Shown: one piece after another, positions 6,268 to 31,301 of the stretch
How the letters are laid out: every line of letters starts with the position of its first letter
Numbering within the stretch: the first letter of the stretch is position 1
IMG/VR virus record: IMGVR_UViG_3300045988_151219
Location: 32,001 to 96,000 of that record
From: a virus
Strand: one strand, 5' to 3'
DNA length: 64,000 bases
The notes under the pieces: model-generated
What the model was told of the DNA's origin: nothing
The model's database searches: none
What the model saw: only the letters and a program-made list of their open reading frames with translations
Translations under genes and position numbers: made by a program

Positions 6268-6332
6268 TTCTTATGATTCCTAATTTCATCTTCTATAATA
6301 AATAAAAGTATTAAACTAATTATTATACCCAT
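6261..6332 (-). CDS. Candidate tiny ORF (23 aa)
   Basis: Own translation MGIIISLILLFIIEDEIRNHKKW*. Chained with the neighbouring mini-ORFs. Confidence 0.2.
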   Translation of the reverse strand: MGIIISLILLFIIEDEIRNHKKW

Positions 6333-6342
6333 TTATATACCT

Positions 6343-6965: not shown

Positions 6966-6969
6966 AAAT

Positions 6970-7780: not shown

Positions 7781-7815
7781 ATCTATTCTCCAATCTTACT
7801 ATATTATACTACAAG

Positions 7816-7850
7816 TTAAAAAGAGTTACTGCTTAAAGTAACTCTTTTCT
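7816..7850 (-). terminator. Rho-independent terminator after 7863-9071
   Basis: Stem aaaagagttac (7818-7828) / gtaactctttt (7838-7848). The minus strand continues with a T run. Confidence 0.6.
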
Positions 7851-7862
7851 TTAAATCTCTTA

Positions 7863-9071: not shown

Positions 9072-9080
9072 AATTAACTC

Positions 9081-9650: not shown

Positions 9651-9659
9651 ATTTACCTC

Positions 9660-10046
9660 TTATAAGTATTCTTTAATAAGGTCTTCGGTTATTTCTCCGT
9701 CATCACCTAAACCATGTACAAACATAACATAGTCTTCATCGTCATAGATTTCAAAATATCCGTTTTCATCTAAGACCCAGGTAGTTCCTTCCGGAATGGT
9801 AATAAAATTCTTCTGATCTCCATCAGCCCATTTCATAATAGCATAAATTTTATTAAGTTCATCAGGCTTAACAAAATTCATTATGCAGTCTTCCGCTGTA
9901 AGCTTAGTTTCATATTTCTTTTTTAATTTGTATTCTTTTCCTACTTCTAATGAACCCATGTTAATTGTTACTTCAACCTGTTCATCGTTTTCGCTTTCAT
10001 TCATTCTTGCTTCGTTCAAGTTACGAATAATTGAATTTACAGCCAT
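9660..10046 (-). CDS. Hypothetical acidic protein; member 3 of the 'SI..LNE' motif trio
   Basis: 128 aa. N-terminus MAVNSIIRNLNEA. Confidence 0.65.
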   Translation of the reverse strand: MAVNSIIRNLNEARMNESENDEQVEVTINMGSLEVGKEYKLKKKYETKLTAEDCIMNFVKPDELNKIYAIMKWADGDQKNFITIPEGTTWVLDENGYFEIYDDEDYVMFVHGLGDDGEITEDLIKEYL

Positions 10047-15082: not shown

Positions 15083-16558
15083 TTAATGTCCGTCAGACGC
15101 CTGTTTTTCATAGAAAATTGTACCCCGAACATAAAGATTCGGTTCAATCATTCTCTTAGCGTAAGACGTTGCATATCCACGGCGACCCATAAAGTCGTCC
15201 AACATTACCAGTTCAGTGTTGTAGAACATCATGTAGGGACTATATACAAACCCTGTATCAATCAGCGTATCGCCTTTGTAACCTACCAGGTAATCGTTTT
15301 CACCTAAGAACGGGTCAAAGTATACGTCTACCTGTCCATCAAGTTTACCTGCAAAATACGGACCAGCTGCCGGAGCTGCTGAACCCTGAAAGCGGGGAGC
15401 CCCTACCATGTTTAAGAGGTCCTGTGCTTTCTTTCCGCAAACTACCCAATTACCGCGGACACGTTTTGTACGGTTGTAAATTGCGTTACACTGTACATGA
15501 ATTTCATTTACGAAAGTCTGAGCCCATTCAGACTGCGAAATGTTAGCTGCAAAAGCGTTGTAGTAGTTATTGAATGAAGAAACAGCTTTAGTACCGTTCC
15601 AAATAGAATTAATGATATCACCGTCAGTTTCATGTTTCAGTTCATTAGCAGCTGCAACAAGCAGTGATTCAGCAATATCAATACCCTGTGCCATCTGGAT
15701 ATCATAAGCTGCATCCAGTGAGAACAGTGAACGGAGCTTTCTCGGCTTAGCAGTTACAAACGTATCAGAAATCTGGATATTGATTTCCGGTACTGCTGCC
15801 GGAGCATATTCTAAATCCTGTTCATAAGAAATAGATACATCGTGAGGACCAGCAACAATGCCCGCAAGTTCTACTACGCCGGTAGCATAGTCAACAGTAC
15901 CTGTAATAGTTCCGCCAGTTGCTTCTGCTAATACTCCATCAGAAGAGTCTTCAACAACTGCATCACCTACGTGGATTAATACAGTTCCAGGAACTACCGG
16001 TACATTTTCAATAGACGTTTTATAAGTAGCAGTAGCTGTCGGTTCATGTGCTTCATCTTCAACTACTTCGCCAGTATAGTTACGTCCATTGTAACCGGCA
16101 GTTTCAAACTGCCCAAATAAAGTATCGCCTTTTTTATTGCGACCTCTGTTTGTACCACGGACATATTTCAGGAAGAAAATCTGCCCCTGTTTCTGCTGCA
16201 AAGGCTGTACAGATACAAGCTGTTCAGCAATGATGTTCGGAAAGACTCCCGTGATCACATCGAAAGCCTGGCGTTTCAGATTCAGTGTATTAACGTTACC
16301 TGAATTATTATATTTGTAAGACTGTGTACCGCTGATTCCGAAAGTCGGGTCAGCAGCTTCGTAAATGGGATGACCCATAGTCTTGCAGTTATACGCCTGG
16401 TCTACTGATTCAAGAAGCATTCCCAAACGAATCTTTTCTTCGTCAGAAAATGAACGACCTTTTGAACGACGGTCTGCTTCTACACAGTCCATACGTCCTT
16501 TGTACTTTTTAAGCAGATATTCACTCTGCTGATATAATTTACTCTGCCATGATTCCAT
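15083..16558 (-). CDS. Major capsid protein
   Basis: 491 aa, immediately downstream of the protease-scaffold gene and followed by a terminator. GC content is visibly higher than its surroundings (highly expressed gene). Possible maturation site ..GMLLE|S at aa 50. Confidence 0.75.
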   Translation of the reverse strand: MESWQSKLYQQSEYLLKKYKGRMDCVEADRRSKGRSFSDEEKIRLGMLLESVDQAYNCKTMGHPIYEAADPTFGISGTQSYKYNNSGNVNTLNLKRQAFDVITGVFPNIIAEQLVSVQPLQQKQGQIFFLKYVRGTNRGRNKKGDTLFGQFETAGYNGRNYTGEVVEDEAHEPTATATYKTSIENVPVVPGTVLIHVGDAVVEDSSDGVLAEATGGTITGTVDYATGVVELAGIVAGPHDVSISYEQDLEYAPAAVPEINIQISDTFVTAKPRKLRSLFSLDAAYDIQMAQGIDIAESLLVAAANELKHETDGDIINSIWNGTKAVSSFNNYYNAFAANISQSEWAQTFVNEIHVQCNAIYNRTKRVRGNWVVCGKKAQDLLNMVGAPRFQGSAAPAAGPYFAGKLDGQVDVYFDPFLGENDYLVGYKGDTLIDTGFVYSPYMMFYNTELVMLDDFMGRRGYATSYAKRMIEPNLYVRGTIFYEKQASDGH

Positions 16559-16572: not shown

Positions 16573-17961
16573 TTAGTTTATCTGGGTAAGAAAGCTATTT
16601 AACCTTGTATGATTTTCGTTAATTGAATTGATTGTTTCTACCTTTTGAGGCTTATTAACTATTGACTCATTAACTACTGTCGTTTGGTAATATGCTTTCG
16701 CCCCATAGTCAAAATTTGATTTCTTTTTGACGCTCTTCTTTATTTTAGGCTTTGAGATAACAGGCTTTACAGACTCTACTATCTTTTCCTCTTTTTTAGA
16801 AAGCTGCGTCTTTAAATTCTTTATTTGCTTATTTAAAAGCTTTTTGGTTTCGGTAGATTCTTCTATCTTAGAAAAATAAGTGGCTTTTAACATAGAATTT
16901 GATTCCTGTAAAAAGTCTATCTCTTTACTAAGACTATCAATAGATTCTTCTAACTTCATGTTAGAAGCTATAGCAACATCAACTTCTTTAGATTTCTCGA
17001 CAAGTGCCAGCTTACTTTTAGAGATTTCTTTATTAAAGTGACTTGCCTGGCTGTCTATAGATTCTTTTAAATCTTTTATATCTTTACGATATGAAGAAAC
17101 TTGGTTATTTAGAGTCTGGATGTTGTCTGTAAGTGTAGAGATTTTCGCTCTAAGTGTAGAAATTTCTTCTTCACTTTCAAGTAATTTAGACTCTGTTATA
17201 ATATTTTCTTCAAAAAGATTCTCGTAAGACTCGTCTAAAATCTCTTTGTCAGAAGTGCTGTTTTTGATTTTAGCGTCTATCTTACTTTTAATAGAATCAT
17301 ATATATTAGAATCCATAGATTCAAATATCGGTTTTAATGATTTAATATCCGATGAAGTCGCTTCATCAAGATATTTATTCAATGTGTCAATAAATGTAGC
17401 ATTAGACGATTCATTGACCGGAGAAAGTCTTGAAGTAGAAAAGCCAGGATTAGGTACAAAGTCAAATCCTTTAAAAACATAGTTATCTTCATCAGGATAA
17501 CTTATACCATCTCTAACGGTCATTGACCCTCTGGCTCTTGCAGAAATACCCATTTTACTACCATACTTTATCATGGTATATACCATTCTTCCTGCTGGTG
17601 TATTGAGTATGTCGGCTCTTCCCCACAAGACTTTTTTAGCTTCATCCCACCATAATTTAATTACATTATGGGATACTTTATTTAAATCAATATCAAACCG
17701 TTCTTCCGGATGTGATAATTCTCCGAATAATGTACGGTTTTCCATTAATTCAATAGTGGTTGGATAGTTACGTATCTTATTCTCTACTAAAGAAAAAGTG
17801 TAACCCCGCATATTGTTATTTATTTCATCAACTGAAATAAACGGACCCTCAACGGAACAAAGCACAGCATCGTTAGGTACGTTACTTTCAGTAGATTCAC
17901 ATATTTTTAATTGATGTACTTGTATATTGCTTAAGTATTGTAATTCTTTATCTGTAGGCAA
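16573..17961 (-). CDS. Prohead protease (T4 gp21-like) fused to a coiled-coil scaffold domain
   Basis: N-terminal 200 aa: LFGELSHPEERFDIDL...KLWWDE..KVLWGRADIL.TP.G......IKYGSKMGISARARGS aligns with T4 gp21 ALGELNHPPRANVD...DMWWKG.DVYGRARVI.....G......IRAGWIPGVSSRGLGS. C-terminal 260 aa is K/E/S-rich heptad-like coiled coil. TTG start behind GGGGGTG. Confidence 0.85.
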   Translation of the reverse strand: MPTDKELQYLSNIQVHQLKICESTESNVPNDAVLCSVEGPFISVDEINNNMRGYTFSLVENKIRNYPTTIELMENRTLFGELSHPEERFDIDLNKVSHNVIKLWWDEAKKVLWGRADILNTPAGRMVYTMIKYGSKMGISARARGSMTVRDGISYPDEDNYVFKGFDFVPNPGFSTSRLSPVNESSNATFIDTLNKYLDEATSSDIKSLKPIFESMDSNIYDSIKSKIDAKIKNSTSDKEILDESYENLFEENIITESKLLESEEEISTLRAKISTLTDNIQTLNNQVSSYRKDIKDLKESIDSQASHFNKEISKSKLALVEKSKEVDVAIASNMKLEESIDSLSKEIDFLQESNSMLKATYFSKIEESTETKKLLNKQIKNLKTQLSKKEEKIVESVKPVISKPKIKKSVKKKSNFDYGAKAYYQTTVVNESIVNKPQKVETINSINENHTRLNSFLTQIN

Positions 17962-17998: not shown

Positions 17999-20230
17999 TT
18001 AGGTTCTAATTAATCTTTGTTTATATCCCGAATCGTACTTGCGAATTTCGTTGACTGAAAAATGTTTTGTCACTACCCAAATTAATTTATTCTTATTCCG
18101 CCTAATATATGATAAAGAAGTTGATGAATCGTTTCCGAAAAATTCACCGTCAGTAAATACAATTATGCAGTCTGTCTTCTGATTTACTCTTTTCTTTACC
18201 ATCTCTACCGCTGTAGAAAAGTCCGTTCCACCCTGCGGATATTTCGCATAAGCTGCAGCAACTCTACCATACAGACCCCTTAAGGTTGTGTAGTGTTCCC
18301 AATAATAATCTTTGTCAGACGCCCAATATAAAGCTTCGACCTTCAAATTATGTTTGATTATTTTACTTATATTATCTATTTCCGAAATAACTAAACGATA
18401 TTTATTTGCAGACATAGAACCCGAATTATCAAACATTAAAACTATACGTCCTATATAAGATTCATCAGCTGATGAACCAAACGCTCCTTCAAGTCTTCTG
18501 GACGGGTCATTAGGTCTATACTCTTCTTTTACGTTTAAATAATTGGTAAGTAAAGCTCTTAATTTAACTTTCCAATTAGATAAATTCTGATTAACTTTCA
18601 GCGGCTTTTCCATAATAGGTGAAGAAGCCTTCAACGTTTTCTTAGCCTTTGCTAAAGAACTATTTGAGTCTTCATCATCTTTTACAATTCCAGCTTCTTT
18701 TAATTCTCTTAATTCATCTTGGTCTTCTTTACCTTGTTCATTATTTGTATTGTTCAAAATCTTTTCTACTACATCTTTTAAATCTTTTTGTGACATAGCC
18801 GGCATAGATGAATTAGATTTAGACTGTCTAACTAAAATGTTACGCATAGATTTAGGTATAGATGAATTTCCGCCACTTGAAGAGTCACTGCCAGAAGAAC
18901 CACTTTGAGAATCTCCAGCTTGAGAAGTTGTACCCGAACTACCGCTATCTTGCGAATCTCCTTTGTTACCTTTCATATCATTCTGGCTTAAATCTCTTCC
19001 TGTACTTGAAGAGTTTCCACCATTACTACCTTGAGATGAATTATTTCCGTTTTGACTTTGTTGCGAACTTGATGAACCGCCACTCTGTTGATTTTGCTGG
19101 GAATTTCCGCTCTGTTGACGTTGCTGTGAGTTACCACCCTGCTGATTATCTTCCGTATCTACATTGTTACCGTTAGATACTATTTGTTTTTCATTTCCAT
19201 CTTCATCAACCATGGAAATATTATCAGAAAATCTCTTGATAAAATCTAATATTTTATGAGTTACTATTACAGAATTATCTTTATAGTATTCAAGTAATGA
19301 GTTTGAAATAGAAAAATTAACTCCTAAATAGCCGTCAAAGTCAGTCACTTTAGATAAAACATTAGAAGGTAAAGATACTTTTCCATCTAACAGCTGTTTA
19401 AAAGCTTCTCTTAAAATCTTATAGAATTTGTCTTTTGTAAAATCTACTTTACCTAAAGAGAAAAACATGTCATTAGAAACGCCTGTTATCATCGGAGACT
19501 TTAACAAAACTTTTTCTAACGGCAAGTTTATACAAGCATCTTCTACTATATTACATAAAGTATGAGGATATTTTTTAAAAGATTTTTGAAATAAATGTCC
19601 TCTGTAGATGTGGCTCATCTCATGAGCCAGCAAAAGAACTATTGAATTTTTGGCTTCATTTACTATTAAATCAATAGCTCTTTTGTCAGTTAATTTTAAA
19701 TATCTTATATATTCATTGGTAGACTGATAAAGTGCCTGATAAATAATAAATTCCGGATTGTACCAAAGCTCAACGTCTCCTGATAAAGTCCTGGTAACAC
19801 ATAAAGTCGGTATCTTCCTATTTACTTTCTGCGGAATGTGATTAAAGATAATAGCATATTGAGGAAATAAAATATTTAATCTCTTTACAGCAGCATTAAA
19901 CAATTCAACGCCTAACTGCGGATTAACTTTTTTCATTTCCTCTTTTACTATATCAGCAAGCTTTTGTCTTATTTTTAATGTGTCTACATCAGCACTATAA
20001 TTATTAGATAAAGTAGCTTCTTCTTTTGAGCCTTCCGGAGAATAAGCTACTCCTATTGAAAAAGTATTGTCCGGATTTTCTGTGTTAGTATCTTTAGCAA
20101 ATATAAAGTCTATATCTAAAAAGTTCTTCTGTTTTTCAGAAACCAGTTTATTAAGCTCTTGTCCGTCTTTACTAACAAACTTTTCTTTTATATTTTGTAT
20201 ATGTCCTACTATTTCTTTAAAGTTATACAT
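17999..20230 (-). CDS. vWA-domain protein with N-terminal HExxH metallopeptidase-like domain and a ~110-aa S/G/Q/N-rich linker
   Basis: 743 aa. HExxH motif in LLLAHEMSHIYRGH. Low-complexity region at roughly nt 18850-19190. C-terminal vWA MIDAS elements VLMFDNSGSMS, GGTDFSTA and IIVFTDGE. Confidence 0.8.
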   Translation of the reverse strand: MYNFKEIVGHIQNIKEKFVSKDGQELNKLVSEKQKNFLDIDFIFAKDTNTENPDNTFSIGVAYSPEGSKEEATLSNNYSADVDTLKIRQKLADIVKEEMKKVNPQLGVELFNAAVKRLNILFPQYAIIFNHIPQKVNRKIPTLCVTRTLSGDVELWYNPEFIIYQALYQSTNEYIRYLKLTDKRAIDLIVNEAKNSIVLLLAHEMSHIYRGHLFQKSFKKYPHTLCNIVEDACINLPLEKVLLKSPMITGVSNDMFFSLGKVDFTKDKFYKILREAFKQLLDGKVSLPSNVLSKVTDFDGYLGVNFSISNSLLEYYKDNSVIVTHKILDFIKRFSDNISMVDEDGNEKQIVSNGNNVDTEDNQQGGNSQQRQQSGNSQQNQQSGGSSSSQQSQNGNNSSQGSNGGNSSSTGRDLSQNDMKGNKGDSQDSGSSGTTSQAGDSQSGSSGSDSSSGGNSSIPKSMRNILVRQSKSNSSMPAMSQKDLKDVVEKILNNTNNEQGKEDQDELRELKEAGIVKDDEDSNSSLAKAKKTLKASSPIMEKPLKVNQNLSNWKVKLRALLTNYLNVKEEYRPNDPSRRLEGAFGSSADESYIGRIVLMFDNSGSMSANKYRLVISEIDNISKIIKHNLKVEALYWASDKDYYWEHYTTLRGLYGRVAAAYAKYPQGGTDFSTAVEMVKKRVNQKTDCIIVFTDGEFFGNDSSTSLSYIRRNKNKLIWVVTKHFSVNEIRKYDSGYKQRLIRT

Positions 20231-20235
20231 AAACT

Positions 20236-20568
20236 TTATTCCTCATAAGAAAATCCGATTCCGTTATATCTCGGTCGGCCTAAAGCTTCTATTGTGAGCT
20301 TATATAAATCTTTACTTCTAATCACTACTATATCAAAATCATATATTGTGTGATTAACATTCTGGCGATATTTAATTTTAAATCCGCCTGTAAATTTAGT
20401 GCTGTTATTTACATACCGCCCATCAGTCGCAATAGCAGGAACGAAATATTTCTCATAATCATTCCTGCTCACGTCTATAGAAATGATTTTATTACTGTCT
20501 TCTACTTCTTCTAAGTCAGTACGATAATCGATTGAATTAAGAAAAGATATAAGTACCTCTTTTAACAT
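20236..20568 (-). CDS. Hypothetical protein (110 aa) between the AAA+ and vWA genes
   Basis: ORF-track entry, 1-5 nt from both neighbours. Confidence 0.6.
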   Translation of the reverse strand: MLKEVLISFLNSIDYRTDLEEVEDSNKIISIDVSRNDYEKYFVPAIATDGRYVNNSTKFTGGFKIKYRQNVNHTIYDFDIVVIRSKDLYKLTIEALGRPRYNGIGFSYEE

Positions 20569-20569
20569 C

Positions 20570-23500
20570 TTATTTTGCTCCTTTATTAATATTAGCAGCT
20601 ACTTTAGCTTTGATTTCATCAGAAACTACTACCCCTACACTGTCCATAAGCTCTACCAGTAAGTCTGCTGTATCAAAAGCTTTATTAATAAATTTTCTAA
20701 AATATGTACTGTCTTTTCCTGTATAAAGCATATTAACTTTATATTCATTTGATGGAAGACTATTTAAGAAAGCATAAACAACTTCTCTATCATATTCTGG
20801 GTCTTTATTATCAAAATGGTCAATATACTGTTTAAACAAGCTATTAACAACTGAATATCTCTTTTCAATTACAGGTATAATAGAAATTTCCTGTTCTAAG
20901 AATTTGTTTAATATGTCTATTGATACGCAATCTTCTAAATCATAATGCTCTATTTCTCGGTCAGACACATTATTATAAAACTGTCCGAATTTAGAAGAAG
21001 CATCACTTCCTACAATATAAGTAAAAGCTTCTTTACGGTCACGCATAACTTCAATATCTATCTGTCTTGCAATAACCGCTAATCTCTGGAAAGTCCTATA
21101 AAGAGAATCATCTTCTTTTATACTATCAGAAGTATGAGAAGCTACTAATTCCTGGAGCGTTTCTGCTACTGATTGAGAATCTACCTGCTCCCCACCTAAG
21201 GTAACAGAATAATCCCCTCTGGCACCAGCCCATTTATGAATGTACTTCTTGACTGTATTGTAGACATCTACAAAATCAGTATCTTTTCCCTCTCCTGAAA
21301 TTAAATCAGCTACCTGTCTTTGTGTCTTTTCATCAGGGAACAATACAACTCCTCTAAACATAGAAGTTGATTTAGAGTTCTTTATAAATGTACTTAAGTC
21401 TTCCCACGCTCTGGTAGATGAAGAAGAACATTCTAATGACCGCTTTTCAACTGTATTCATAAAAGCAATAGCATCTTCCGGAGCTAAGTCATTAAAATAT
21501 TTTTGTACTTCCGGAGCAAATTCTGAATCTTTCATATACTTCTGGAAAGATTTTAAATCAAGCTCATCAAATTCAGGTTTCTTTAATACTGAAAATCTTG
21601 CTGAAAATGCAGGGTCAAGAGGTTTAACGTCAGAATAAGCTTCCCCTACGTTACAAGAACCTACAACTTTTACTCTGTCTTTATTGAATTTTATACCTCT
21701 AAATCTGTGGTCTGAAATAACTTCTAAGATAGCACTCATAAGAGTCGTATCAGAAAGTCTATTCATTTCATCAAAATGAATAATAACTTCCTGTCCTACG
21801 TCCGCTGCTTTTCTTAGCTTATAATATAATTCTCCGTCACAAGCTTTTATAGTAGTCTTTTCAGGCAAGTTAAATTCAGACAGCTTAGGCAACTCATTTA
21901 GTTCAGACTCATTTAAATTAAGTCCGCCTAAAATATAACGGGCTACAGATACAGTAGTAGGAATACCCATCAAGTCCAGTCTATCTTGTTCAGCTAAGTT
22001 TACATCTATCAGTAAAGCCTTTCTTTTATTTGCTATTGCTTTTAACCTTGAAGATTTACCCATAGATGAAGCTGTTTCAAGCAGAATAGGTGTATTAGAA
22101 TCAATACCCTGTTCTATAAAATCAGACATAACATCATCAGAAAGTTCAGCTTCTTTATATCCTAATTTAGTCAGATAGTCATAGAAGTTTTCTCCACCTT
22201 CTCCTAAAAGACCCATAAAGATATCTTTCTTAATTACTTTATCGGGATGTTGATAAAGATAGTTTGAAGCCATTTCCCACGTGCGGAAGTTAGGATAAGA
22301 AGTTTCCCCAGCTTTGTCAGTATCCCCTGTATCATTATAAACTTTCTCTACTAAAGAAAAATCATAATACTGTGTTGGGAATTTTTCTAAGTATTCTCTT
22401 ACTACCGGATGAATGTTAGTCCTGTCTCCTTCAGACTTTTCATCTGCCCAGGCTTTCCACGGTTTAATAACATCTTCCGGCAAAATAGGAATAGGTTCAA
22501 AACGGTCATTAAAAGCAGCATCGTCTGAAATTCCTACTTGATATATTGACTGTAAATCTTCTTCTTTTCCTACGGCATAGTTAGAAGCTGCTACAATCTT
22601 AGCATACTTCATAGGGTGACCCATAAATTCCTTGTCCGACAGTATCTTTGTAAAAGCTTGTCTGATAGGTGGATAACATCTCATAAGTTCGTCCAGGAAC
22701 AGAACAGGCGGTTTTGCTCCTTCTTTAAACTTATTCAATATTTTTGTGAGTCTTTCTTTGTCATAGTCTTCTGCGGTTTCTATTTTCTCTTCTATAATAG
22801 GAATAGATTTACGGCAGAAATCTACGTATGAATCTAAGCATTCTATCATAAAAGAAGCAGGAGCTGAATTTGCCACTATCTCTGAAAGGTCCTCTAAATC
22901 TTCTGTATTATTTACTTTAGATAAACCTTGTAAGTCAAGACGTGATAAGAAAGCTAACCGAATATCTACTAAACGATAGCCATACTGGTCAGCTAATTTC
23001 TTAACCATAGCAGATTTAGCTACCCCTGACTGCCCTAAAAGCAAAGGTATTCTATTCTGCGGTTTATCATTTTGAAAATAAACATCAAGTCTACTTACAT
23101 ATGTAGGGGTACCTGATTCTACATTCCCTACACTGTTTTTAAATTCATCATCATCTACTTTGTTAAATAGGTCTTTGAGATTTGCTTCATCAATAGTCAT
23201 AAGTTTCATAGGTTTCCTTTGGATAGATTCATTAATATAATTATTAAAAGGGTGGTCATCAGTTAAAGAGTCTTTGTGATTTAAGCAGAAGTCTAAATAG
23301 TAAGAGTCCGAAACTCCCCCTATTTCCTGTCCGTCTATATCAGAATAGACTACAGTCGTTCCGCTTTCTGCCGTATCTACATATGAGTTTCTTAAAACAT
23401 CGTTATAGTCTACTTCGACTATCATTGCTTTAATTTTCTCCATATGCTTTTTAATCGAATATACGACAAAATCAGGTTCTGTCATTACATAAAAATTAAA

Positions 23501-23683
23501 TGGACGAACCTGATATATAGTTGGTGATTTTATTGAGCTTACTACTGATGAAGTAAACTCATCTGATAGATTGTTAAATTGTGAGGCTTTAGCTGTCAGT
23601 AAAAGATTATTTGTATCAAAGTCTACTACTTTGTTTGATATAACGGGACATTTTTCTAAGAAAGGTAAATAATCTTGTACCAC
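20570..23683 (-). CDS. Large ATPase with two MoxR/dynein-related (AAA_5-like) AAA+ modules
   Basis: 1037 aa. Module 1: Walker A LLLGQSGVAKSAM, ..RLDLQGL, Walker B VLFLDELMR. Module 2: Walker A LETASSMGKSS, ..RLDLMGIP, Walker B IIHFDEMNR. Confidence 0.8.
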   Translation of the reverse strand: MVQDYLPFLEKCPVISNKVVDFDTNNLLLTAKASQFNNLSDEFTSSVVSSIKSPTIYQVRPFNFYVMTEPDFVVYSIKKHMEKIKAMIVEVDYNDVLRNSYVDTAESGTTVVYSDIDGQEIGGVSDSYYLDFCLNHKDSLTDDHPFNNYINESIQRKPMKLMTIDEANLKDLFNKVDDDEFKNSVGNVESGTPTYVSRLDVYFQNDKPQNRIPLLLGQSGVAKSAMVKKLADQYGYRLVDIRLAFLSRLDLQGLSKVNNTEDLEDLSEIVANSAPASFMIECLDSYVDFCRKSIPIIEEKIETAEDYDKERLTKILNKFKEGAKPPVLFLDELMRCYPPIRQAFTKILSDKEFMGHPMKYAKIVAASNYAVGKEEDLQSIYQVGISDDAAFNDRFEPIPILPEDVIKPWKAWADEKSEGDRTNIHPVVREYLEKFPTQYYDFSLVEKVYNDTGDTDKAGETSYPNFRTWEMASNYLYQHPDKVIKKDIFMGLLGEGGENFYDYLTKLGYKEAELSDDVMSDFIEQGIDSNTPILLETASSMGKSSRLKAIANKRKALLIDVNLAEQDRLDLMGIPTTVSVARYILGGLNLNESELNELPKLSEFNLPEKTTIKACDGELYYKLRKAADVGQEVIIHFDEMNRLSDTTLMSAILEVISDHRFRGIKFNKDRVKVVGSCNVGEAYSDVKPLDPAFSARFSVLKKPEFDELDLKSFQKYMKDSEFAPEVQKYFNDLAPEDAIAFMNTVEKRSLECSSSSTRAWEDLSTFIKNSKSTSMFRGVVLFPDEKTQRQVADLISGEGKDTDFVDVYNTVKKYIHKWAGARGDYSVTLGGEQVDSQSVAETLQELVASHTSDSIKEDDSLYRTFQRLAVIARQIDIEVMRDRKEAFTYIVGSDASSKFGQFYNNVSDREIEHYDLEDCVSIDILNKFLEQEISIIPVIEKRYSVVNSLFKQYIDHFDNKDPEYDREVVYAFLNSLPSNEYKVNMLYTGKDSTYFRKFINKAFDTADLLVELMDSVGVVVSDEIKAKVAANINKGAK

Positions 23684-23695: not shown

Positions 23696-24250
23696 TTATT
23701 GCTGTAATAAGTATTTGAATAAATATTTAAAAGCTATTGAAACTTCTGTATCAAACTGCTTACTTAATGATATATTTCTGTTGCTTTCCCAGTCTATATC
23801 CATAAGTTCAAAGATAGGTTTCAGCCGCATATATACTGAAGGTGAATATGAAATCTGATACTGTCCTGAATCTGTTTTATATATACATTTCAACGCAAAT
23901 ACCAGTACTAAAACCTGAAACATTGTTACGACTGTCCGAATAAAAACATAGTCTTTATTCTGGTCATCTAAATAGTCCTGGTCTCCCACTTGCTGGAGTT
24001 CTTTAACCAGTTGCATAAACCTTTGATTCATGAAAATACGGCTCATAGCAGACCCGCCGGCATCTTGATACAGCTTTCTGATGTCTTCGATATCATCGAT
24101 ATCAGGATTATCCATAAGCTCTTTTATTTCATCATTATATTTCCTCAAAAGCGGAAGTACAATAACATCACTCTTCGGTCCAAAAGGTTTTTTAGACAAA
24201 AGCTTTCTAAAATATTTCTGGTAGTAAGTAGAAATCAGCTGTAACTTCAT
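23696..24250 (-). CDS. Hypothetical protein (184 aa)
   Basis: ORF-track entry. No motif recognised. Confidence 0.6.
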   Translation of the reverse strand: MKLQLISTYYQKYFRKLLSKKPFGPKSDVIVLPLLRKYNDEIKELMDNPDIDDIEDIRKLYQDAGGSAMSRIFMNQRFMQLVKELQQVGDQDYLDDQNKDYVFIRTVVTMFQVLVLVFALKCIYKTDSGQYQISYSPSVYMRLKPIFELMDIDWESNRNISLSKQFDTEVSIAFKYLFKYLLQQ

Positions 24251-24278: not shown

Positions 24279-25283
24279 TCAAATAATTGAAAGTGTAAAA
24301 TATCTCCTTAACAGAATCTGCTTTATAAGTGTTACTAAATTTATAATACGATATTTTTCACTTAGTAAATATTTCTTTCTCCCAAAAGGTTTTACTTCTA
24401 AATAAAAATCCTTTGGCAATAACTTACGTAAACTATCAGGAAGTATTGTTGTTAAATCTAAAAATCCCCTTGTTATTGAGTAAAAAGCTGATTTAGTGGC
24501 AATTCTTCCACCATCTAAAAACGCTATTGCTACTTCTTCTAAATTACTCTCCTTTAAAATTTTGTATGATTTAATATTATCTTTAGCACTATTATTTACT
24601 AAAATATAAAGCTGGTCTTGTTTTGTCGCCTTATATGTTAAGTAAGAAAATTTTCGTACGGGTATTATAGATTTTATAACATAATATATGTCTACCTTCT
24701 CTCCCTTTTTAGGCTTCACATATCTATATAGAATAGTAAGCACAGATTTATATAAATTTACATTCTTAACTAACAAAATTAACTTATCTACAACATTTAA
24801 AATATTGTAATCAACTCCGCTATTTAAAAGCTTCACCATCAACTGAAAAGCGTCTAAGTTTTCTTCTTTTAAGTTAAATAAGTTAAAATCCAAACTAAGT
24901 TTAAAAGCTATCAGTATATCCCTTATATTATTTTTATCGTCTTTAAAGTTTAAATAGTCTTTTAGCTGTTGGTCAGTTCCTACATAAACAGCTACCCCTA
25001 AACTTGGGTCAGTTAAATAAAAATTTCCTGATTTAATTCCATAAAATAACCCAAATAAAACTACATAAGGTTCGTCAACTTTTAACAGTTTAATATTTAA
25101 TTTAACATATTTACTAAAATTGTCAAAAGATACTATATGTAATCCAGTAAATTCTGGAAATATCTTCTGTATTTTAAGTAGATAGTCAGTTTTTTTACTT
25201 ATATCCTTATAAAATTTAATTACAGCCTCTTGACCGTTAATGCAAGAAATATTTAATTTGAAAGTTTTTTCTTGTACATTCAT
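24279..25283 (-). CDS. Paralog-array member 6 (divergent)
   Basis: LFGLFYGIKSGNFYLTDPSLGVAVYV and DAFQLMVKLLNSG correspond to the IFSMYYSPDTNIFYLNDP..AVPI and DSFSLLVQMLTKG blocks of the other members. The C-terminal tail has diverged. Confidence 0.65.
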   Translation of the reverse strand: MNVQEKTFKLNISCINGQEAVIKFYKDISKKTDYLLKIQKIFPEFTGLHIVSFDNFSKYVKLNIKLLKVDEPYVVLFGLFYGIKSGNFYLTDPSLGVAVYVGTDQQLKDYLNFKDDKNNIRDILIAFKLSLDFNLFNLKEENLDAFQLMVKLLNSGVDYNILNVVDKLILLVKNVNLYKSVLTILYRYVKPKKGEKVDIYYVIKSIIPVRKFSYLTYKATKQDQLYILVNNSAKDNIKSYKILKESNLEEVAIAFLDGGRIATKSAFYSITRGFLDLTTILPDSLRKLLPKDFYLEVKPFGRKKYLLSEKYRIINLVTLIKQILLRRYFTLSII

Positions 25284-25319
25284 TGGCAGTACCCTTCTAC
25301 AAACAGTTTATATTTTATA

Positions 25320-26404
25320 TTATACTAATTCTTTCATTAGTCTTTTTGAGATTTTGTTAAATATTACAGAAAATCGTCTACTATTGTGAGTATTATGAAT
25401 AAACTTATTTGCTTGAAACTCATGACCAAAATTAATTTTATTAGGGTCTGTAGGAGATTTTATAGAAGTCGCTTTATTAAAAGTTTCTTCCCCCATTAAA
25501 TCTTTTGCCGGACTTATTAAATCTTGAAAAGTAACTTCTGTCGTTTTTTTCTAAAGAAGGACTTTGTTTAATGAAATATTCTGTTAATTCCACCTTATTT
25601 ACATAATTAAGAATTTTATTATAGTGTTCTGAATCAGAATCATATTGGCTTAACGGAACATCAGAAGAAGCTCGGTATAAATAATATTTACAAGCTGATG
25701 AAGATTCTATAGGAACTATAGTAGAATTTTTATAAAATACTCTTTCTATATCTGAATAAAGGTTTGTTTTTTCCGCATTCAATTTTAAAATCCGTTGAAA
25801 GAAAAACTGAACTTCTATAACTTCTTTAGCTAAATTAAACAGCTTATATACAAAACCATCAACACTACTTGGGTCTGATACACTCTCTACAGAATGACTA
25901 CATAACAAGTCTATTAATAACTCAAAATTATCTACTTCTTTTTCTATTTCTTCATCTTTATTTAAAAAATATTCTATATTTCCTGTTAGCTTATAAGCCA
26001 TAACTTTATTAATAAAATCTTGACTTAAATCTACTCCTAAATAAAGAGATAAATCAGCTAAAGTATTAAACGGAACTGCAATACCAGTCTCCGGTTCAGT
26101 TAAATAAAATATTTCTGTTTCCGGAACATAATACATATTAAACAAATAAATATAATTTACCGTTTTGTTTTTTCATCCCAGTAAAGACAAAATAACTTTT
26201 CATTTTCATCTACTTCAAAGGGAAAGTCGGTAACATTTTCCGCTTTTCTTGTAGTAGATTTAAACAATAATATAAAAAGCATATATATTTACAGTCATTA
26301 TCTCTATTTGAGTTCAGTAATTTATCTATGAAAGTTAATTGTCTTACAAAACTAATTATTCTACGGGATACTTCACCAGTATCCAAAAAATAAAGTTTCT
26401 TCAT
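25320..26404 (-). pseudogene. Paralog-array member 5, disrupted by three frameshifts
   Basis: Track ORFs 26210-26419 and 25477-26145 are fragments. Own three-frame reading gives MKKLYFLDTGEVS... then (shift at plus A5 26274-26278) ..FILLFKSTTRKAENVTDFPFEVDENEKLFCLYWDEK, then (shift at plus T6 26168-26173) ..KTVNYIYLFNMYYVPETEIFY...SPSLEK, then (shift at plus T7 25544-25550) ..TTEVTFQDLISPAKDL...NSRRFSVIFNKISKRLMKELV*. Confidence 0.7.
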
Positions 26405-26405
26405 G

Positions 26406-27440
26406 TTAGGACACCTCATTTAAAACAGATTTAGATATTTTATTAAAAATTACAGAAAATCTTCTATCCAGTAATCCTCTTTTATATAAAAAATTAGTAT
26501 TCATATCAGCATAATCCCCAGCATATTTTTCTTGCCCTGGTTCTATTTCAACCTTATTAAATGAATTTAAAGCTCTTTTACTTATATGAAGCTTTAACGG
26601 CTCTAATAAATCTGCCGCTGATTTTTCCGCCGATTCTATTGACGATGAAGTTTTTATGAAATACTCTTTTAGCTCTTCTTTATTTAATGCTCTATATAAT
26701 GAATTAGACACGTCATTTGTAGTAATATTAATATCCACTACATTATCTAAAGACAATTTCTTTAAATCATCTAACTTATTTGCAAAAATAAACAAATAAG
26801 GAACAAAAGAAGCAGATATACCGTATAATTTTATATTAGTTTGCCAGTCTTCCAGTAAAGAAAAAAATCTTCTTGAATTATTAACTAATAAAGTACAAAC
26901 AAAAACAACATCCAATAAAGTTTTCTTGACTTGATTGATGTCTACCTGGCTCTCTTGTAATGAATTTTGCAAACATGAAATTAAAAGCTGGAAATTATCT
27001 ACGTCTTCATCATCTCCGGTTTCAAAAAAATTTGCTATGTTTCCGGATATTTTATAAGCTAAAGCTTTTTTAAAGAAGTCATTTCTTATCTTAAACTGCA
27101 ACTTTTTTTCAAGAGTCGTTAGAGACAATATAGGAATAGCTCCAACATCTGATTTATTAGCATAAAAAATTTCTGTGTCCGGTGAATAGTACATACCCCA
27201 AAGACATATAAAGTTACGTGGATTTACACAAGTAACAGCTTCTCCTCGTGTTAGGACCCTTATACTATTTTTAGTTAAGTTATGTACTATAAAAAATAAA
27301 GATTTAGTTTTAAAGAAAGCTTCATATCTTTTTATAACCGAATTAACAGCCTTTATAGAATGAAACACATTATCTAAATTCTGTTCATCTGATAGAAAAG
27401 TATCTAAATGAAATTCAAAAAGAGTTTTTTCTACTCCCAT
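26406..27440 (-). CDS. Paralog-array member 4
   Basis: 344 aa with YYSPDTEIFYANKS core. Tail is RRFSVIFNKISKSVLNEVS*. Confidence 0.75.
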   Translation of the reverse strand: MGVEKTLFEFHLDTFLSDEQNLDNVFHSIKAVNSVIKRYEAFFKTKSLFFIVHNLTKNSIRVLTRGEAVTCVNPRNFICLWGMYYSPDTEIFYANKSDVGAIPILSLTTLEKKLQFKIRNDFFKKALAYKISGNIANFFETGDDEDVDNFQLLISCLQNSLQESQVDINQVKKTLLDVVFVCTLLVNNSRRFFSLLEDWQTNIKLYGISASFVPYLFIFANKLDDLKKLSLDNVVDINITTNDVSNSLYRALNKEELKEYFIKTSSSIESAEKSAADLLEPLKLHISKRALNSFNKVEIEPGQEKYAGDYADMNTNFLYKRGLLDRRFSVIFNKISKSVLNEVS

Positions 27441-28442
27441 TTAACTTACCTCTTTAAGTAGTATCTTAGATATTTTATTGAAAATTACTGAAAACTTCTT
27501 ACAATATAATATACTCATTTCTCCATAATACGTTGTATAAAGCTCTTTACTTTGTTTAGCATCCGCTTCTATTTTACTATCGGCTGTATCAAATAAAGAA
27601 AGAGTTCTCTTAGAAACTTTATCTTGGATAGGCTTTAAAAAATCCTTTATTGATTTATCAGCTACATCAAGAGACGGTGAAGTTTTTATAAAATACTCTG
27701 AAAGCTCTTCTTTATTTAAAGCTTTATATAAAGGATTAGTTAAATTAAATTCACTTGTAGTAAATTCATGTTCTACAAAATATGACGGATAATCAAGAGA
27801 AGCTTTTCTAAAATCATCTATATTATCAATACCTAATAGAGTATTTTTCTGAAACGTACATTCTATAGTTTTAAATTCTTCCTCTTCAACATGTTGTGCA
27901 AAATCTTCCATAAAAGCACCAAACGTAAAAAGAAATCTTGTCATTGCATCTGTAAATTTAAGTAACCTATCTTTTATTTCTTTTTTGTCTGTGATAACCT
28001 CAACGTTCATATTCTGTAAAAGATTAACCATTAAAGAGAATGTATCCGATGTTGTATCTTGAATATCAAAAGATAATAAATCATCTATATTACCTGTTAC
28101 TTTATAAAGTAAAACTCTCTCGGTAAAATTTTGATTAATAGGATATTGCAAATATTTACTTAAAGCTTTTAAAGAAACAACAGGTATCGCTATCTTCTCT
28201 GATTTATTAGCATAAAAAATTTCTGTGTCTGGTGAATAATAAGCTCCAAATATCTTTAAAAAATTTTGAGGTCTAATTTCTTCTTCCCAGCTTAAAATTA
28301 CATAATCATCATGGAAATTTTCATATTTAAAAAGATATTCCATATTTAAATCTTTTTTTAGTCTTCTTAGTGGAGAATTTACTATTCTTACTCCACCCTT
28401 TATATCAGAAGTAGGATAATTTACTCGATAAGACCGTTTCAT
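27441..28442 (-). CDS. Paralog-array member 3
   Basis: 333 aa with YYSPDTEIFYANKS core. Tail is KKFSVIFNKISKILLKEVS*. Confidence 0.75.
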   Translation of the reverse strand: MKRSYRVNYPTSDIKGGVRIVNSPLRRLKKDLNMEYLFKYENFHDDYVILSWEEEIRPQNFLKIFGAYYSPDTEIFYANKSEKIAIPVVSLKALSKYLQYPINQNFTERVLLYKVTGNIDDLLSFDIQDTTSDTFSLMVNLLQNMNVEVITDKKEIKDRLLKFTDAMTRFLFTFGAFMEDFAQHVEEEEFKTIECTFQKNTLLGIDNIDDFRKASLDYPSYFVEHEFTTSEFNLTNPLYKALNKEELSEYFIKTSPSLDVADKSIKDFLKPIQDKVSKRTLSLFDTADSKIEADAKQSKELYTTYYGEMSILYCKKFSVIFNKISKILLKEVS

Positions 28443-28443
28443 T

Positions 28444-29460
28444 TTAACTTACCTCTTTAAGCAGTATCTTAGATATTTTGTTGAAAATGACTGAAAACTT
28501 TCGGTCAGTTAATCCTCTGCTATATTTTGCTCGTACTGCATTATAACCTATGTCTCTCTTTTCAACTGCTTTATCGAAAGCCGAAATTGTTCTTCCGCCT
28601 GTCACATCTTTTACAAACTCTAAATGTTCTTTCATTGATTTTTCAGCCACATCAAGTGAAGAAGAAGATAATAAGAAAAAGTCAAATAGTTCTTCTCTAT
28701 TAAAAACTTTATTTTCTACTATGTCTTCTTTATCATAAGTAGAATCTGTACATGAAGAATAAAGATAAGATTTACTATTAAATCTTTTAACAGGCTCCGT
28801 GCAAGATGGACCTAACCAATACTCATAATTAAATAAAAAAGTAAACCTACGTTTTATATTATCTACAAGGACTACAAATTTTTTTAAAATTCTGGTCGCT
28901 TCATTAATATCTACATTAAATATTTCAGAATGATTCTGAAGGAGATTAATTAAAAGCTCGAAATTATCTGTATCCTTAACATCTTTATTTTCATATAAAA
29001 AATAATCCAATTTCCCTGATATTTTAAAGGAAACGGCTCTTTTTACAAAATCATCTGAAATTTTAAAATTTAAAATCCTTTCAAAAGTTTTTAAATTAAT
29101 AAAGGGAATAGCTCCCCCACCTTTAGGGTGATTGAAATAAAATATTTCTGTTTCAGGTGAGTAATATAAGCTAAAAAGTTTTATTGCATTAGTCGGCTTA
29201 ACTATTTCATCCCATTCAAATTTAACAGCTCTAACATTCATATCTTTTCTTTGTATACCTGGTTGAGTTGCCAACGCACTTTCCGGAACATCTTCTAAAT
29301 TAACGATTCTATAAGTAAATAAACAATCACTCTCTGCTATTTGATTTTTTAACTCGTTCCCCCATTTATAAAAAAAGTCACTTAAAAAAGAACTTAAAGT
29401 ATGCCACCAGTTTTCTACATTCACATAATCTGGAAAAAATCCGTATATTTCTCTATGCAT
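28444..29460 (-). CDS. Paralog-array member 2
   Basis: 338 aa with YYSPETEIFYFNHP core. Tail is RKFSVIFNKISKILLKEVS*. Confidence 0.75.
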   Translation of the reverse strand: MHREIYGFFPDYVNVENWWHTLSSFLSDFFYKWGNELKNQIAESDCLFTYRIVNLEDVPESALATQPGIQRKDMNVRAVKFEWDEIVKPTNAIKLFSLYYSPETEIFYFNHPKGGGAIPFINLKTFERILNFKISDDFVKRAVSFKISGKLDYFLYENKDVKDTDNFELLINLLQNHSEIFNVDINEATRILKKFVVLVDNIKRRFTFLFNYEYWLGPSCTEPVKRFNSKSYLYSSCTDSTYDKEDIVENKVFNREELFDFFLLSSSSLDVAEKSMKEHLEFVKDVTGGRTISAFDKAVEKRDIGYNAVRAKYSRGLTDRKFSVIFNKISKILLKEVS

Positions 29461-29464
29461 TTAT

Positions 29465-30571
29465 CTAAGCCCCTCCATTCAAACTTACCTCTTTTAATAG
29501 AGATTTACTTATTTTATTGAAAATTACTGAAAATTTACGATTAAGTAATTCATTCCGTCTATCAAGCTGTCCTAAAGGTTTATCTATAAAAGCATCTATT
29601 TTATCTAAATTAGATTGGTCAGCTGCCTTATTAAAGAAAGAAGCAGCCCTGCTACTTACTCTACTTTTTAACGGTGTAACTAAATCTTTAAAAGCTTTTT
29701 CCGCACTTTCAACAGAATCAGATTTATCTAAATAGTAGTTAGATATTTCTTCCCTATTTACAGCTTTTTGCAAATTTAACAGTTCTTTTTTATCTTTAAA
29801 AGCATATTCCAGTCTATAAATTAAAGTGGAATACGAATAAAGAGTTTTACTTACAGCAGAAAAATTATTACTGTCTACCATCCCTTCTTGTGAAGCTGCA
29901 AAAGAAGGAGCAATTTCTTTATATAAAGAAGTGTTAAATTCATACATATCCAAAGTAGACATGTAAATATGATAGAAATAAACCTGTAAAGCTGATACTA
30001 AATTTACCATCTTATAAAGAAGTTTACTTCTACTTTTTGTATCTAAAGCACTGTTATAACTATCAACACCTTTAGTCAACATTTGCACTAAAAGCGAAAA
30101 AGAATCCGCATCTTGAATTTCAGACTCTTTAAATAAAGTCTCTAAATCTCCGGTAATTTTATATGATAAAGCTCTGTTTTCAAAATCAGTTTCTAAAGGA
30201 AGCTCTAAATACTCCGCTAAAGTTTTTAACTTCATAATCGGCACAGCATAATCATATTTAGGGTCGTTTAAATAAAAAATATTTGTGTCCGGAGAATAGT
30301 ACATACTAAAAATGTAGATACTGTCTTTCGGCTTGACAGTCTCTTCCCATTCCAGTTTTAAAAAACTTAATTCTTCATCAATAGTATCATATGGAAAATC
30401 AGGGTCTTGTTCCGCTTGTTTAAAAGTTAAGAATTTTATGTTAAATAAGAACTCTCCTAAATAAAGGTTCATAGTATTTAAAATGCTTTTAAACAAGTCT
30501 TCAAATTTAGACTTCTTATAAAAAATATTCGATTCTCCAGTACCTAACGATAAATATAAAGTTCTTTTCAT
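29465..30571 (-). CDS. Paralog-array member 1
   Basis: 368 aa with YYSPDTNIFYLNDP core. Tail is RKFSVIFNKISKSLLKEVSLNGGA*. Confidence 0.75.
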   Translation of the reverse strand: MKRTLYLSLGTGESNIFYKKSKFEDLFKSILNTMNLYLGEFLFNIKFLTFKQAEQDPDFPYDTIDEELSFLKLEWEETVKPKDSIYIFSMYYSPDTNIFYLNDPKYDYAVPIMKLKTLAEYLELPLETDFENRALSYKITGDLETLFKESEIQDADSFSLLVQMLTKGVDSYNSALDTKSRSKLLYKMVNLVSALQVYFYHIYMSTLDMYEFNTSLYKEIAPSFAASQEGMVDSNNFSAVSKTLYSYSTLIYRLEYAFKDKKELLNLQKAVNREEISNYYLDKSDSVESAEKAFKDLVTPLKSRVSSRAASFFNKAADQSNLDKIDAFIDKPLGQLDRRNELLNRKFSVIFNKISKSLLKEVSLNGGA

Positions 30572-31011: not shown

Positions 31012-31301
31012 TTAAAATATTCCCCGAATAATTTTTTATGTATATTAAGAACTTCTTCCTGTGAAATCTTTCCCTGTATAAAATCATTTAATGTATTAGC
31101 CTGTATCTTTACATCTAAAATTTCATACATAGATACTGATTGATAAGAAAGCTCTATTAAAGAATGTGTTAAGAATGATGAAAGATACTTGGCTAAAGTT
31201 AAGTCGTTAGGCTGCTCTTTGCCATTAAGAACTTTTCTAAGTCCTATATAGAAAGCTTTAGTCCTCATTGATTTAAAAAATTCCTGCTTAACGTTTACCA
31301 T
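31008..31301 (-). CDS. Hypothetical protein (97 aa)
   Basis: Coupled to portal (1-nt overlap) and to the Hint gene (4-nt overlap). Confidence 0.6.
   Translation of the reverse strand: MVNVKQEFFKSMRTKAFYIGLRKVLNGKEQPNDLTLAKYLSSFLTHSLIELSYQSVSMYEILDVKIQANTLNDFIQGKISQEEVLNIHKKLFGEYFK

Follow-up and report, generated by a model that had tools for sequence, protein, structure and literature searches.

A tandem-AAA MoxR-type ATPase and a metallopeptidase-vWA protein beside the prohead protease gene of a large uncultured phage clade

The IMG/VR virus record IMGVR_UViG_3300045988_151219 carries, within the 64 000-nucleotide stretch analysed here (positions 32,001 to 96,000 of the record; referred to below as the window), two large genes located among head genes: one for a 1037-aa protein with two AAA modules and the other for a 743-aa protein which combines a metallopeptidase-like (MPTase) domain, a linker and a von Willebrand factor A (vWA) domain. 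Judged from sequence comparisons, they can be assigned to the widespread phage gp24/gp25 kind of module (a MoxR AAA_5 ATPase with a DUF2201 metallopeptidase-vWA protein), present here in a tandem-AAA form. In molecular terms this is probably a machine driven by ATP: a MoxR-class ring acting via a vWA adaptor that bears a metal ion-dependent adhesion site (MIDAS), together with a tethered or associated zincin. As to its role in infection, we lean tentatively towards an accessory, host-dependent remodelling or processing module rather than a core head-assembly factor. The MoxR and DUF2201 pair is already known by computational description and is widespread; new are (i) a tandem-AAA architecture carrying N- and C-terminal domains of its own, (ii) a module of four genes in which the MPTase and vWA parts undergo fusion and fission, and (iii) the fixation of this module beside the prohead protease gene in a large uncultured clade, seen in about 45 metagenomic loci.

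Both genes had been singled out in an original prediction made from the DNA alone, and both are real: 20570-23683 encodes 1037 aa and 17999-20230 encodes 743 aa, each on the minus strand, as are all large open reading frames (ORFs) of the window. The motifs quoted in that prediction were all found in the two proteins at the expected places, and its domain calls (tandem AAA_5/MoxR-like modules, an HExxH metallopeptidase-like domain, a disordered linker and a vWA domain with an intact MIDAS) were right. Its picture of a two-gene system was incomplete: a 110-aa ORF (20236-20568, minus strand) intervenes, with gaps of 1 bp and 5 bp to its neighbours, and a 184-aa ORF (23696-24250, minus strand) adjoins the AAA gene directly upstream across a 12-bp gap. 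The head-gene setting was also correctly described, since a Portal_T4 gene is present upstream and the genes for an S77 prohead protease and a gp23-like major capsid protein (MCP) follow immediately downstream, the former beginning 37 bp past the vWA gene.

The AAA gene has a GTG start and an AAGGAG ribosome-binding site. Its product contains GQSGVAKS at residue 217, RLDLQG at 248 and LFLDEL at 328 in module 1 (aa ~195-512; 22148-23101, minus strand), and ASSMGKS at 538, RLDLMG at 568 and IHFDEM at 635 in module 2 (aa ~513-760; 21404-22147, minus strand). Pfam AAA_5 matched module 1 only (E = 3e-7, 30.9 bits for a cutoff of 22); module 2, to which the same assignment had been given, was missed by Pfam but is homologous by hhalign, which aligned it to module 1 with a probability of 99.3% (E = 1.5e-20) over 207 columns spanning Walker A, the RLDLxG block, Walker B, sensor 1 and the arginine region. 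On this comparison, module 2 is best regarded as a true internal duplicate of module 1. PHROG 1297 ('ATPase') matched the protein at 3e-48 and PHROG 16335 matched module 2 at 1e-14. In an alignment of 19 homologs the invariant residues are K223, D331/E332, N368 (sensor-1) and R394 for module 1, and K543, E639, N678 (sensor-1) and R696 for module 2. The claim that the second module has a complete motif set needs one qualification: the GK[ST] core is invariant across the family, but the first residue of its Walker A (TASSMGKS) is non-canonical. Searches of NCBIfam and PADLOC returned only chance-level P-loop matches, one of them, in PADLOC, to BrxF; sequence searches of the PDB with both proteins gave nothing useful.

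The modules are flanked by an N-terminal alpha/beta domain (aa 1-135; 23279-23683, minus strand; pLDDT 70-88), followed by a disordered segment (aa 136-190; pLDDT <50), and by an all-helical C-terminal domain of about 280 aa (aa 761-1037; 20570-21403 with the stop codon, minus strand; pLDDT ~75-90), for which Pfam gave no match apart from a chance-level one to DUF5886. The AlphaFold model of the whole protein has a mean pLDDT of 79.7 and displays beta2-beta3 inserts in both AAA modules. Its best fold matches in the PDB were dynein AAA2-4 and Rea1/midasin, i.e. proteins with concatenated AAA modules; among viral models, the best were the tandem ATPase of a Rhizobium phage and many single-module phage ATPases of the 'gp24-like/MoxR' type.

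An exhaustive profile search among 1.84 billion cluster representatives retrieved 153 at E <= 1e-30, in agreement with the predicted rarity of the tandem-AAA form. About 100 of the 153 match end to end. A second group, of the Rhizobium-phage type, matches only both modules (positions ~180-770); the N-terminal domain is kept in the full-length family and missing from this type, and both terminal domains can be regarded, from the alignments, as family-specific. No tandem-AAA relative was found in 185,579 bacterial and archaeal species, each represented by one genome. Several homologs contain intein-sized insertions, some of which were confirmed with Pfam Intein_splicing. These are located beside Walker B in module 1 and, in module 2, after GK(543/544), after DEMNR (~642) and at ISD|HR (~658). 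Because they sit at or beside catalytic motifs of both modules, both ATPase sites appear to be under constraint; inteins home into such conserved catalytic sites, and we read the insertions as an independent sign of it.

The second protein (743 aa) carries AHEMSHIYRGH at residue 202, DNSGSMS at 601, GGTD at 667 and FTDGE at 692. Its vWA domain (aa ~590-743; 18002-18463, minus strand) was confirmed by a match to Pfam VWA_2 above the gathering score (E = 9e-7, 29.9 bits for a cutoff of 27). The MIDAS residues are D601-x-S603-x-S605, T669 and D694, and a conserved D..R.I tail closes the C-terminus; the DxSxS...T...D signature is invariant in every homolog examined, including that of the N4-like phage nACB1. 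The proposed DUF2201-type metallopeptidase was less straightforward to recognize, as both Pfam models stayed under their cutoffs (DUF2201: E = 7.5e-4, 20.1 bits for 26.4; DUF2201_N: E = 0.022, 14.8 bits for 23.2). It is supported by profile-profile comparison of the N-domain with bona fide DUF2201_N (hhalign probability 96.7%, E = 3.3e-10) and by PHROG 1314, which matched residues 122-723 at 2e-21. The diverged DUF2201_N zincin-like domain (aa ~100-345; 19196-19933, minus strand) has T142, YNP157-159, H203-E204-xx-H207, H212, N227, D231 and I234-N235 as conserved residues. In every homolog examined, again including nACB1, HExxH is invariant and is followed by H, D or N four residues on and then by N...D..IN. 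Between the two domains lies a low-entropy linker rich in S, Q, G and N (aa 349-475, ~125 aa; 18806-19186, minus strand); it had been described as built of S, G, Q and N exclusively, but these residues make up ~74% of it. Homolog linkers differ in composition and length.

In more distant relatives, two neighbouring genes stand in place of the fused one, one matching the N-terminal domain and the other the vWA domain. The split form is the majority and the fused form the minority (window, L005, L006, L007 and L010; such designations refer to the related loci described below). The separate MPTase genes of the head-cluster clade gave zero Pfam matches. Because the MPTase and vWA parts fuse and split, the ATPase, peptidase and vWA activities appear to be tied together. 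Searches with the fused protein were of limited use: two word-indexed searches gave 1 and 3 matches, swamped by the linker or limited by divergence. In the PDB, the DUF2201 profile matched only generic vWA domains and, weakly through HExxH, selecase MJ1213. PHROG 1314 carries the label 'HNH endonuclease', and DUF2201 metallopeptidase-vWA proteins are widely labelled 'HNH endonuclease', 'Zn-dependent hydrolase (T4-gp25-like)' or 'anti-sigma factor' in PHROG 1314 and GenBank. The 'HNH endonuclease' label appears to be a mis-annotation that spread.

A near-identity DNA search found no close relative of the window locus among GenBank phages; the nearest MCPs, about 34% identical, are those of SP-15, LIS04, HSE3 and GXN1, which are phages of Bacillota. 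Related loci were collected as eleven contexts obtained via homologous proteins plus 38 IMG/VR loci obtained via the AAA profile. All those long enough to show it, ~45 metagenomic loci, share one order: portal, a variable block of ~4-7 kb, a ~200-aa ORF, tandem AAA, a ~100-144-aa ORF, MPTase, vWA, S77 protease and MCP. The vWA-MIDAS partner adjoins the AAA gene in all module-bearing loci. Across divergent loci, the only genes that co-occur are AAA, MPTase/vWA, portal, protease and MCP. Between the window and L005, identity is 50% for AAA, ~40% for the vWA protein, 50% for the protease-scaffold, 61% for the large terminase, 74% for the portal and 80% for the MCP; in this comparison the module evolves like the protease-scaffold and faster than terminase, portal and MCP.

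The two small ORFs follow the module by position more than by sequence. At the upstream position, nearly every related locus has an ORF of 177-205 aa, and 34 of these form one sequence family; the 184-aa-type ORFs of the window and L005, 26% identical to each other, display no detectable homology to that 34-member family (hhalign probability ~2%). Between the AAA and MPTase/vWA genes, every module-bearing locus of the head-cluster clade has an ORF of 100-144 aa, and nACB1 has one of 137 aa at the same place. Sequence similarity of the 110-aa ORF reaches from the window to L005 only. The idea that the 110-aa and 184-aa ORFs represent conserved sequence families was thus abandoned; starting from the window, only position and size are kept.

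A second sampling, anchored on the protease, gave 58 loci with enough upstream sequence. The module is present in 21 and absent from 37 of them, and in many of the latter the portal gene is just 0.5-2 kb upstream of the protease gene, as in T4. In a tree of protease domains (a rough neighbour-joining tree with no support values), module-bearing loci fall in one broad group, with module-free lineages nested within. SP-15 and LIS04 have the same portal/protease/MCP arrangement with ribonucleotide reductase (RNR) genes in the slot, and AAA and vWA homologs are missing from both genomes. L055, a module-free locus next to the window's own branch, contains in the slot (17-9909) three large RCC1-repeat proteins and a class II RNR, and L059, from a nested module-free lineage, a 1759-aa protein. 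One of the L055 RCC1-repeat proteins has a Hint/intein-like C-terminus, and in L009 an IS605 OrfB/TnpB-like gene is found inside the slot. By its distribution the module is not a core gene of this head type, being absent in SP-15, in LIS04 and in 37/58 protease-anchored loci, and the portal-to-protease slot is a cargo hot spot. The stronger notion first drawn from SP-15 and LIS04, namely that the module is purely a random cargo insertion, was softened by its fixed position in ~45 loci. Homologous modules also exist elsewhere: in L010 the module is near a DNA polymerase A gene, away from head genes, and in 121Q the pair is located between structural genes and DprA/ThyA, where the flanking genes are annotated as virion structural and the pair is not.

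Transcription signals differ among the lineages. At least five divergent lineages have an intrinsic terminator between vWA and protease genes, with hairpin sequences that differ; in the largest group, compensatory stem changes are found among variants (AGGGAATAT..., AGAGGATAT... and GGAGGAATATAC...). The conserved hairpin is located at 16627-16657 in L017 and at the equivalent spot in ~20 loci. In the window, L005, L006, L009, L011 and L035, the vWA-protease gap is 9-69 bp long and has no terminator, and the first clear hairpin and T-run in the window comes after the MCP gene. The T4 late promoter motif TATAAATA is not enriched in the window (9 found, 16 expected) and a sigma-70 promoter scan stayed at background level. 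The predicted location of the pair inside a head-morphogenesis module is borne out, but this position is a poor guide to function, given the other cargo in the slot, the 37/58 loci without the module and the terminators in relatives.

The statement that no role has been characterised for such a pair in phage head morphogenesis is true, although the pair itself had been described before, in jumbo phages (PMC7824862) and as N4 gp24/gp25 (PMC4193335). Iyer et al. (2021, Viruses 13:63; PMC7824862) reported MoxR and metallopeptidase-vWA pairs in jumbo phages and, citing the Acidianus two-tailed virus (ATV), predicted for them a role in virion assembly with peptidolytic processing. In 121Q (gp563/gp564) and in RaK2 ('gp24-like'), the same AAA_5/MoxR ATPase stands beside an HExxH DUF2201_N and vWA-MIDAS protein, and the jumbo-phage and window pairs fall in the same PHROGs, 1297 and 1314. 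They differ in that the jumbo-phage ATPase has one AAA module (~350-440 aa), whereas the 1037-aa window protein has tandem modules plus N- and C-terminal domains; the jumbo-phage partner is compact (~400-490 aa) with clear Pfam matches, whereas that of the window is Pfam-divergent with a long linker (or two genes in relatives); and only the window pair is accompanied by two small ORFs and fixed beside the prohead protease gene. In GenBank, at least 618 phage records contain the DUF2201 partner. Hidden Markov models of the window modules matched nACB1_061 (1e-24), the MoxR proteins of Bas58 (2e-13) and Bas54 (1.7e-13 and 3.6e-12) and 121Q gp563 (9e-10); by these profile matches, Bas54 MoxR, 121Q gp563, nACB1_061 and both window modules constitute one family. 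The nACB1 and 121Q partners are clear DUF2201_N + DUF2201 members (1e-47 and 3e-34).

N4 gp24 and gp25 (vWFA) are two of just 14 core genes of N4-like phages, and belong to the middle transcripts in N4 (PMC4193335). The order in nACB1 (MoxR-like ATPase, 137-aa ORF, 404-aa DUF2201_N+DUF2201 protein) mirrors that of the window (AAA, small ORF, MPTase-vWA). The gp24/gp25 type of Schitoviridae differs from the window in having a single AAA module, in being sited among or next to replication genes and in its middle-phase expression in N4. In phage Bas54 (MaxBurger), the locus was checked and bas54_0063 is the annotated MoxR ATPase; as in the window, it is an AAA protein of the same family accompanied in the genome by a DUF2201_N+DUF2201 'putative metallopeptidase' (bas54_0055), but the two genes are 3.7 kb apart, divergently oriented and beside rIIA/rIIB, and there is a single AAA module. 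Knockouts of bas54_0063 plate on K-12, and the gene is required against the predicted defence system DS-28 (HIDEN-SEQ preprint, bioRxiv 10.1101/2025.11.20.689424). This is the sole phenotype on record for the family, and it is one of conditional counter-defence, not assembly. The papers on CRISPRi-ART and PhageMaP hold no data on the pair that would bear on gp24/gp25 essentiality. Directly upstream of the DUF2201 gene of Bas54 is a gene for a 325-aa protein that is labelled 'anti-sigma factor' and matches nothing in Pfam (bas54_0056; L134 1583-2560), with orthologs in L131 and L132; this Vequintavirus protein might be a further partner.

No cultured phage carries the tandem-AAA form of the window, and the only cultured phages with a tandem-AAA homolog are those of the Rhizobium phage RHph_Y65 kind (Kleczkowskaviridae; gp273-gp276 in RHph_Y65). 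Its ATPase has 1174 aa and 27% identity over both modules, and behind its gene come a small ORF and then the genes for an MPTase and a vWA protein; it differs from that of the window in being without the N- and C-terminal domains and in its place, a non-structural region with gyrase, partition and tRNA genes at a distance of ~75 kb from the MCP gene. The MoxR protein p618 of ATV occurs in the virion and binds the vWA protein p892, which stimulates the p618 ATPase (PMC4124505); p618 has been implicated in tail development (PMC4124505, reviewing Scheele 2011). ATV thus offers a viral MoxR-vWA pair, as does the window, and one linked experimentally to virion morphogenesis; it is, in contrast, an archaeal spindle-shaped virus with extracellular tail growth, its pair having a single AAA module and no metallopeptidase domain. 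In Staphylococcus jumbo phage DC4, the AAA ATPase gp11, beside a 'metallopeptidase' (gp12), was detected in purified virions, a finding for which its authors want confirmation (PMC10638138).

Cellular pairs such as NorQ/NorD, CbbQ/CbbO and RavA/ViaA resemble that of the window in combining an AAA_5-class ATPase with a vWA-MIDAS adaptor which has a functionally important linker (PMC13036017). In the structures of NorQ/NorD, the vWA partner engages the MoxR ring by a pore finger and a C-terminal contact, and the ATPase remodels the linker of its partner (PMC13036017); for the window pair, this may serve as a mechanistic analogy only. Compared with cellular MoxR-vWA chaperones and with midasin and dynein, the window system has an added HExxH domain, no evident client and, in each chain, two AAA modules where those proteins have one or six. 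No third component and no defence-model match of the bacterial MoxR-vWA ternary conflict systems (VMAP, iSTAND and FtsH types; Kaur et al. 2020) was found.

In the mechanism that we consider, each 1037-aa chain would contribute two active AAA modules and a ring of three chains, probably a pseudo-hexamer (compare dynein and midasin), would be formed. The vWA domain would be the adaptor of this ring, its MIDAS gripping an acidic residue of the target; ATP hydrolysis would pull on or remodel the target protein, and the HExxH zincin domain, carried on its flexible linker (or present as a separate subunit in most relatives), would cut it. The module occupies the portal-to-protease cargo slot, where a single broad group of T4-like phages of ~200 kb has inherited it. 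Most likely, its target depends on the host: either a host defence or takeover target, or a phage protein whose processing matters in some hosts. We prefer this accessory role because the slot behaves as a cargo site and there are phages with the same head and no module, because terminators are present in many relatives and homologs occupy non-head locations, and because of the middle-phase expression in N4 and the Bas54 phenotype.

Several observations weigh against the accessory role. The module is always directly upstream of the S77 protease and MCP genes in ~45 loci, with MCP identity down to ~30%, and this fixed gene order is the strongest argument for a tie to the head genes. The short terminator-free gap in the window, L005, L006, L009, L011 and L035 suggests co-transcription with late head genes, and late co-transcription poorly fits an early counter-defence role. 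That the pair is core in all N4-like phages is unusual for an anti-defence gene. The AlphaFold model of the vWA protein was unusable (pLDDT 43.5, the alignment being too shallow), and we know of no demonstration of protease activity for DUF2201_N. The Bas54 result is one preprint sentence concerning a single-AAA, distantly similar relative, and it did not implicate the neighbouring metallopeptidase-vWA gene (bioRxiv 10.1101/2025.11.20.689424). In a further reading, which we regard as unlikely, the module of this clade of ~200-kb phages would be a targeting protease that depends on ATP, is expressed late and has a functional link to the head genes that follow, acting as a prohead assembly or maturation factor or as a guard. 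As a prohead factor it would provide a second, energy-driven processing step beside the S77 protease, needed for large capsids; as a guard it would remove host defence sensors that recognize portal, protease or capsid proteins, as those triggers are made.

The principal competing explanation is the one proposed by Iyer et al. (2021) for the jumbo-phage pairs, a chaperone-protease of virion or head morphogenesis, which we find somewhat less likely. The AAA ring and vWA adaptor would help to assemble or remodel a large prohead, at its portal, its scaffold core or its shell, and the zincin, next to the S77 protease, would process a structural protein. The place directly upstream of the protease-scaffold and MCP genes, fixed in ~45 divergent loci, and the tight terminator-free spacing in the window lineage are what this explanation would lead one to expect; many module-bearing contigs are of ~200 kb, and the intein-sized insertions at several sites suggest an important gene. 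SP-15, LIS04 and 37/58 loci, however, build capsids of the same type with no module, plainly non-structural cargo is also found in the slot, and terminators part the module from the protease gene in many relatives. In other viruses, p618 is part of the ATV virion and has an ATPase that p892 stimulates (PMC4124505), and DC4 gp11 was found in purified virions (PMC10638138), but the latter detection needs confirmation according to its authors, homologs elsewhere lie outside head modules and are middle genes in N4, the 121Q pair is not annotated as structural although its flanking genes are, and the Bas54 MoxR knockout still plaques on K-12.

The same virion detections (PMC4124505, PMC10638138) could be taken to mean that the proteins travel inside the capsid or on the virion and do their work at ejection or later, like ATV MoxR or T4 internal proteins, for example by remodelling ejected proteins or by attacking host defence on entry. 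Such a role would reconcile the apparent late co-transcription in the window lineage with the possible counter-defence role reported in the Bas54 preprint; it is nevertheless improbable, as 1037-aa chains arranged in a ring would take up a great deal of space as cargo, no signal for capsid targeting or cleavage was recognized and the 121Q pair is not annotated as structural. Marginally less probable still is a chaperone for metal-cofactor insertion or enzyme activation in the style of NorQ/NorD, CbbQ/CbbO, CobS/CobT or CoxD/E, serving RNR or the radical-SAM protein of the window. This is the best-understood role of MoxR-vWA pairs (PMC13036017, PMC9976466), the layout of N-domain, linker and vWA resembles CobT, BchD and NorD, and a radical-SAM protein is encoded in the window and RNR in the same slot of relatives. 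But the conserved HExxH zincin motif indicates peptidase chemistry, no CobT, CbbQ_C or NorD-type match was obtained in Pfam or NCBIfam, and no candidate client enzyme consistently co-occurs with the module.

The MoxR and DUF2201 pair is among the most widespread function-unassigned gene pairs of large virulent phages, being core in N4-like phages and present in rV5-like and RaK2-like phages. The ATPase of the locus described here is dynein-like and has arisen by internal duplication, its two modules both keeping a conserved site, and the natural fusion and fission of peptidase and vWA argue for three activities working as one machine. Set against the counter-defence phenotype of Bas54, it frames a testable question: assembly chaperone or host-directed protease? 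Should the late targeting protease, as prohead factor or guard, prove to be true, it would be the first function for the phage gp24/gp25 (MoxR-DUF2201) pair. That the slot is a cargo hot spot is in itself a caution against deducing function from position.

The upstream limit of the variable slot in the window is the T4-type portal gene (31301-32929, minus strand; Pfam Portal_T4, 6.5e-40), and a large terminase with an intein is also encoded upstream of the module. The interval between portal and AAA genes contains an array at 24279-30571 (minus strand), which is real and consists of six tandem paralogs of 222-368 aa with 26-39% mutual identity. One copy of this family is found in L005 and none in any other related locus; the array is an expansion specific to the window/L005 lineage. 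The suggestion that the module acts on the paralog-array proteins consequently fails, and the array was ruled out as its substrate, as the family is missing from every other module-bearing locus.

Downstream of the module, the S77 prohead protease gene (16573-17961, minus strand; Peptidase_S77, 7e-13; PHROG 207, 6e-40) has a coiled-coil, scaffold-like C-terminal half. The fused coiled-coil region has ~240 aa, with coiled-coil matches over residues 220-400, and a distinct scaffold gene is missing ahead of the MCP gene, which suggests a protease-scaffold fusion, in contrast to the separate gp21 and gp22 of T4. The gp23-like MCP gene follows (15083-16558, minus strand; Pfam Gp23, 2e-52), with the hairpin and T-run downstream of it.

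Many module-bearing IMG/VR contigs are of ~198-213 kb, whereas most module-free relatives are on contigs of ~100-142 kb, with SP-15 (222 kb) and L120 (202 kb) as exceptions among the latter; as contig completeness is unknown, a tie of the module to genome or capsid size is a lead only. In many related loci (L013-L049, L082, L100, L120 and others, and SP-15, L004 15983-18500), the MCP gene is in two to three pieces, presumably because introns or homing endonucleases have inserted there, as the SP-15 annotation has it. Three genes of the window contain inteins (Intein_splicing with or without LAGLIDADG), those for the large terminase, a clamp-loader subunit and the radical-SAM protein (32933-37150, 43755-45917 and 47012-50596, minus strand); with the intein-sized insertions at five or more sites in AAA homologs, these phages are unusually intein-rich. 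Finally, inspection by eye of residues ~60-70 of the window MCP revealed 'HPIYE/AADP' near residue 67, which resembles the [L/I]xE site where the T4 gp23 propeptide is cut.

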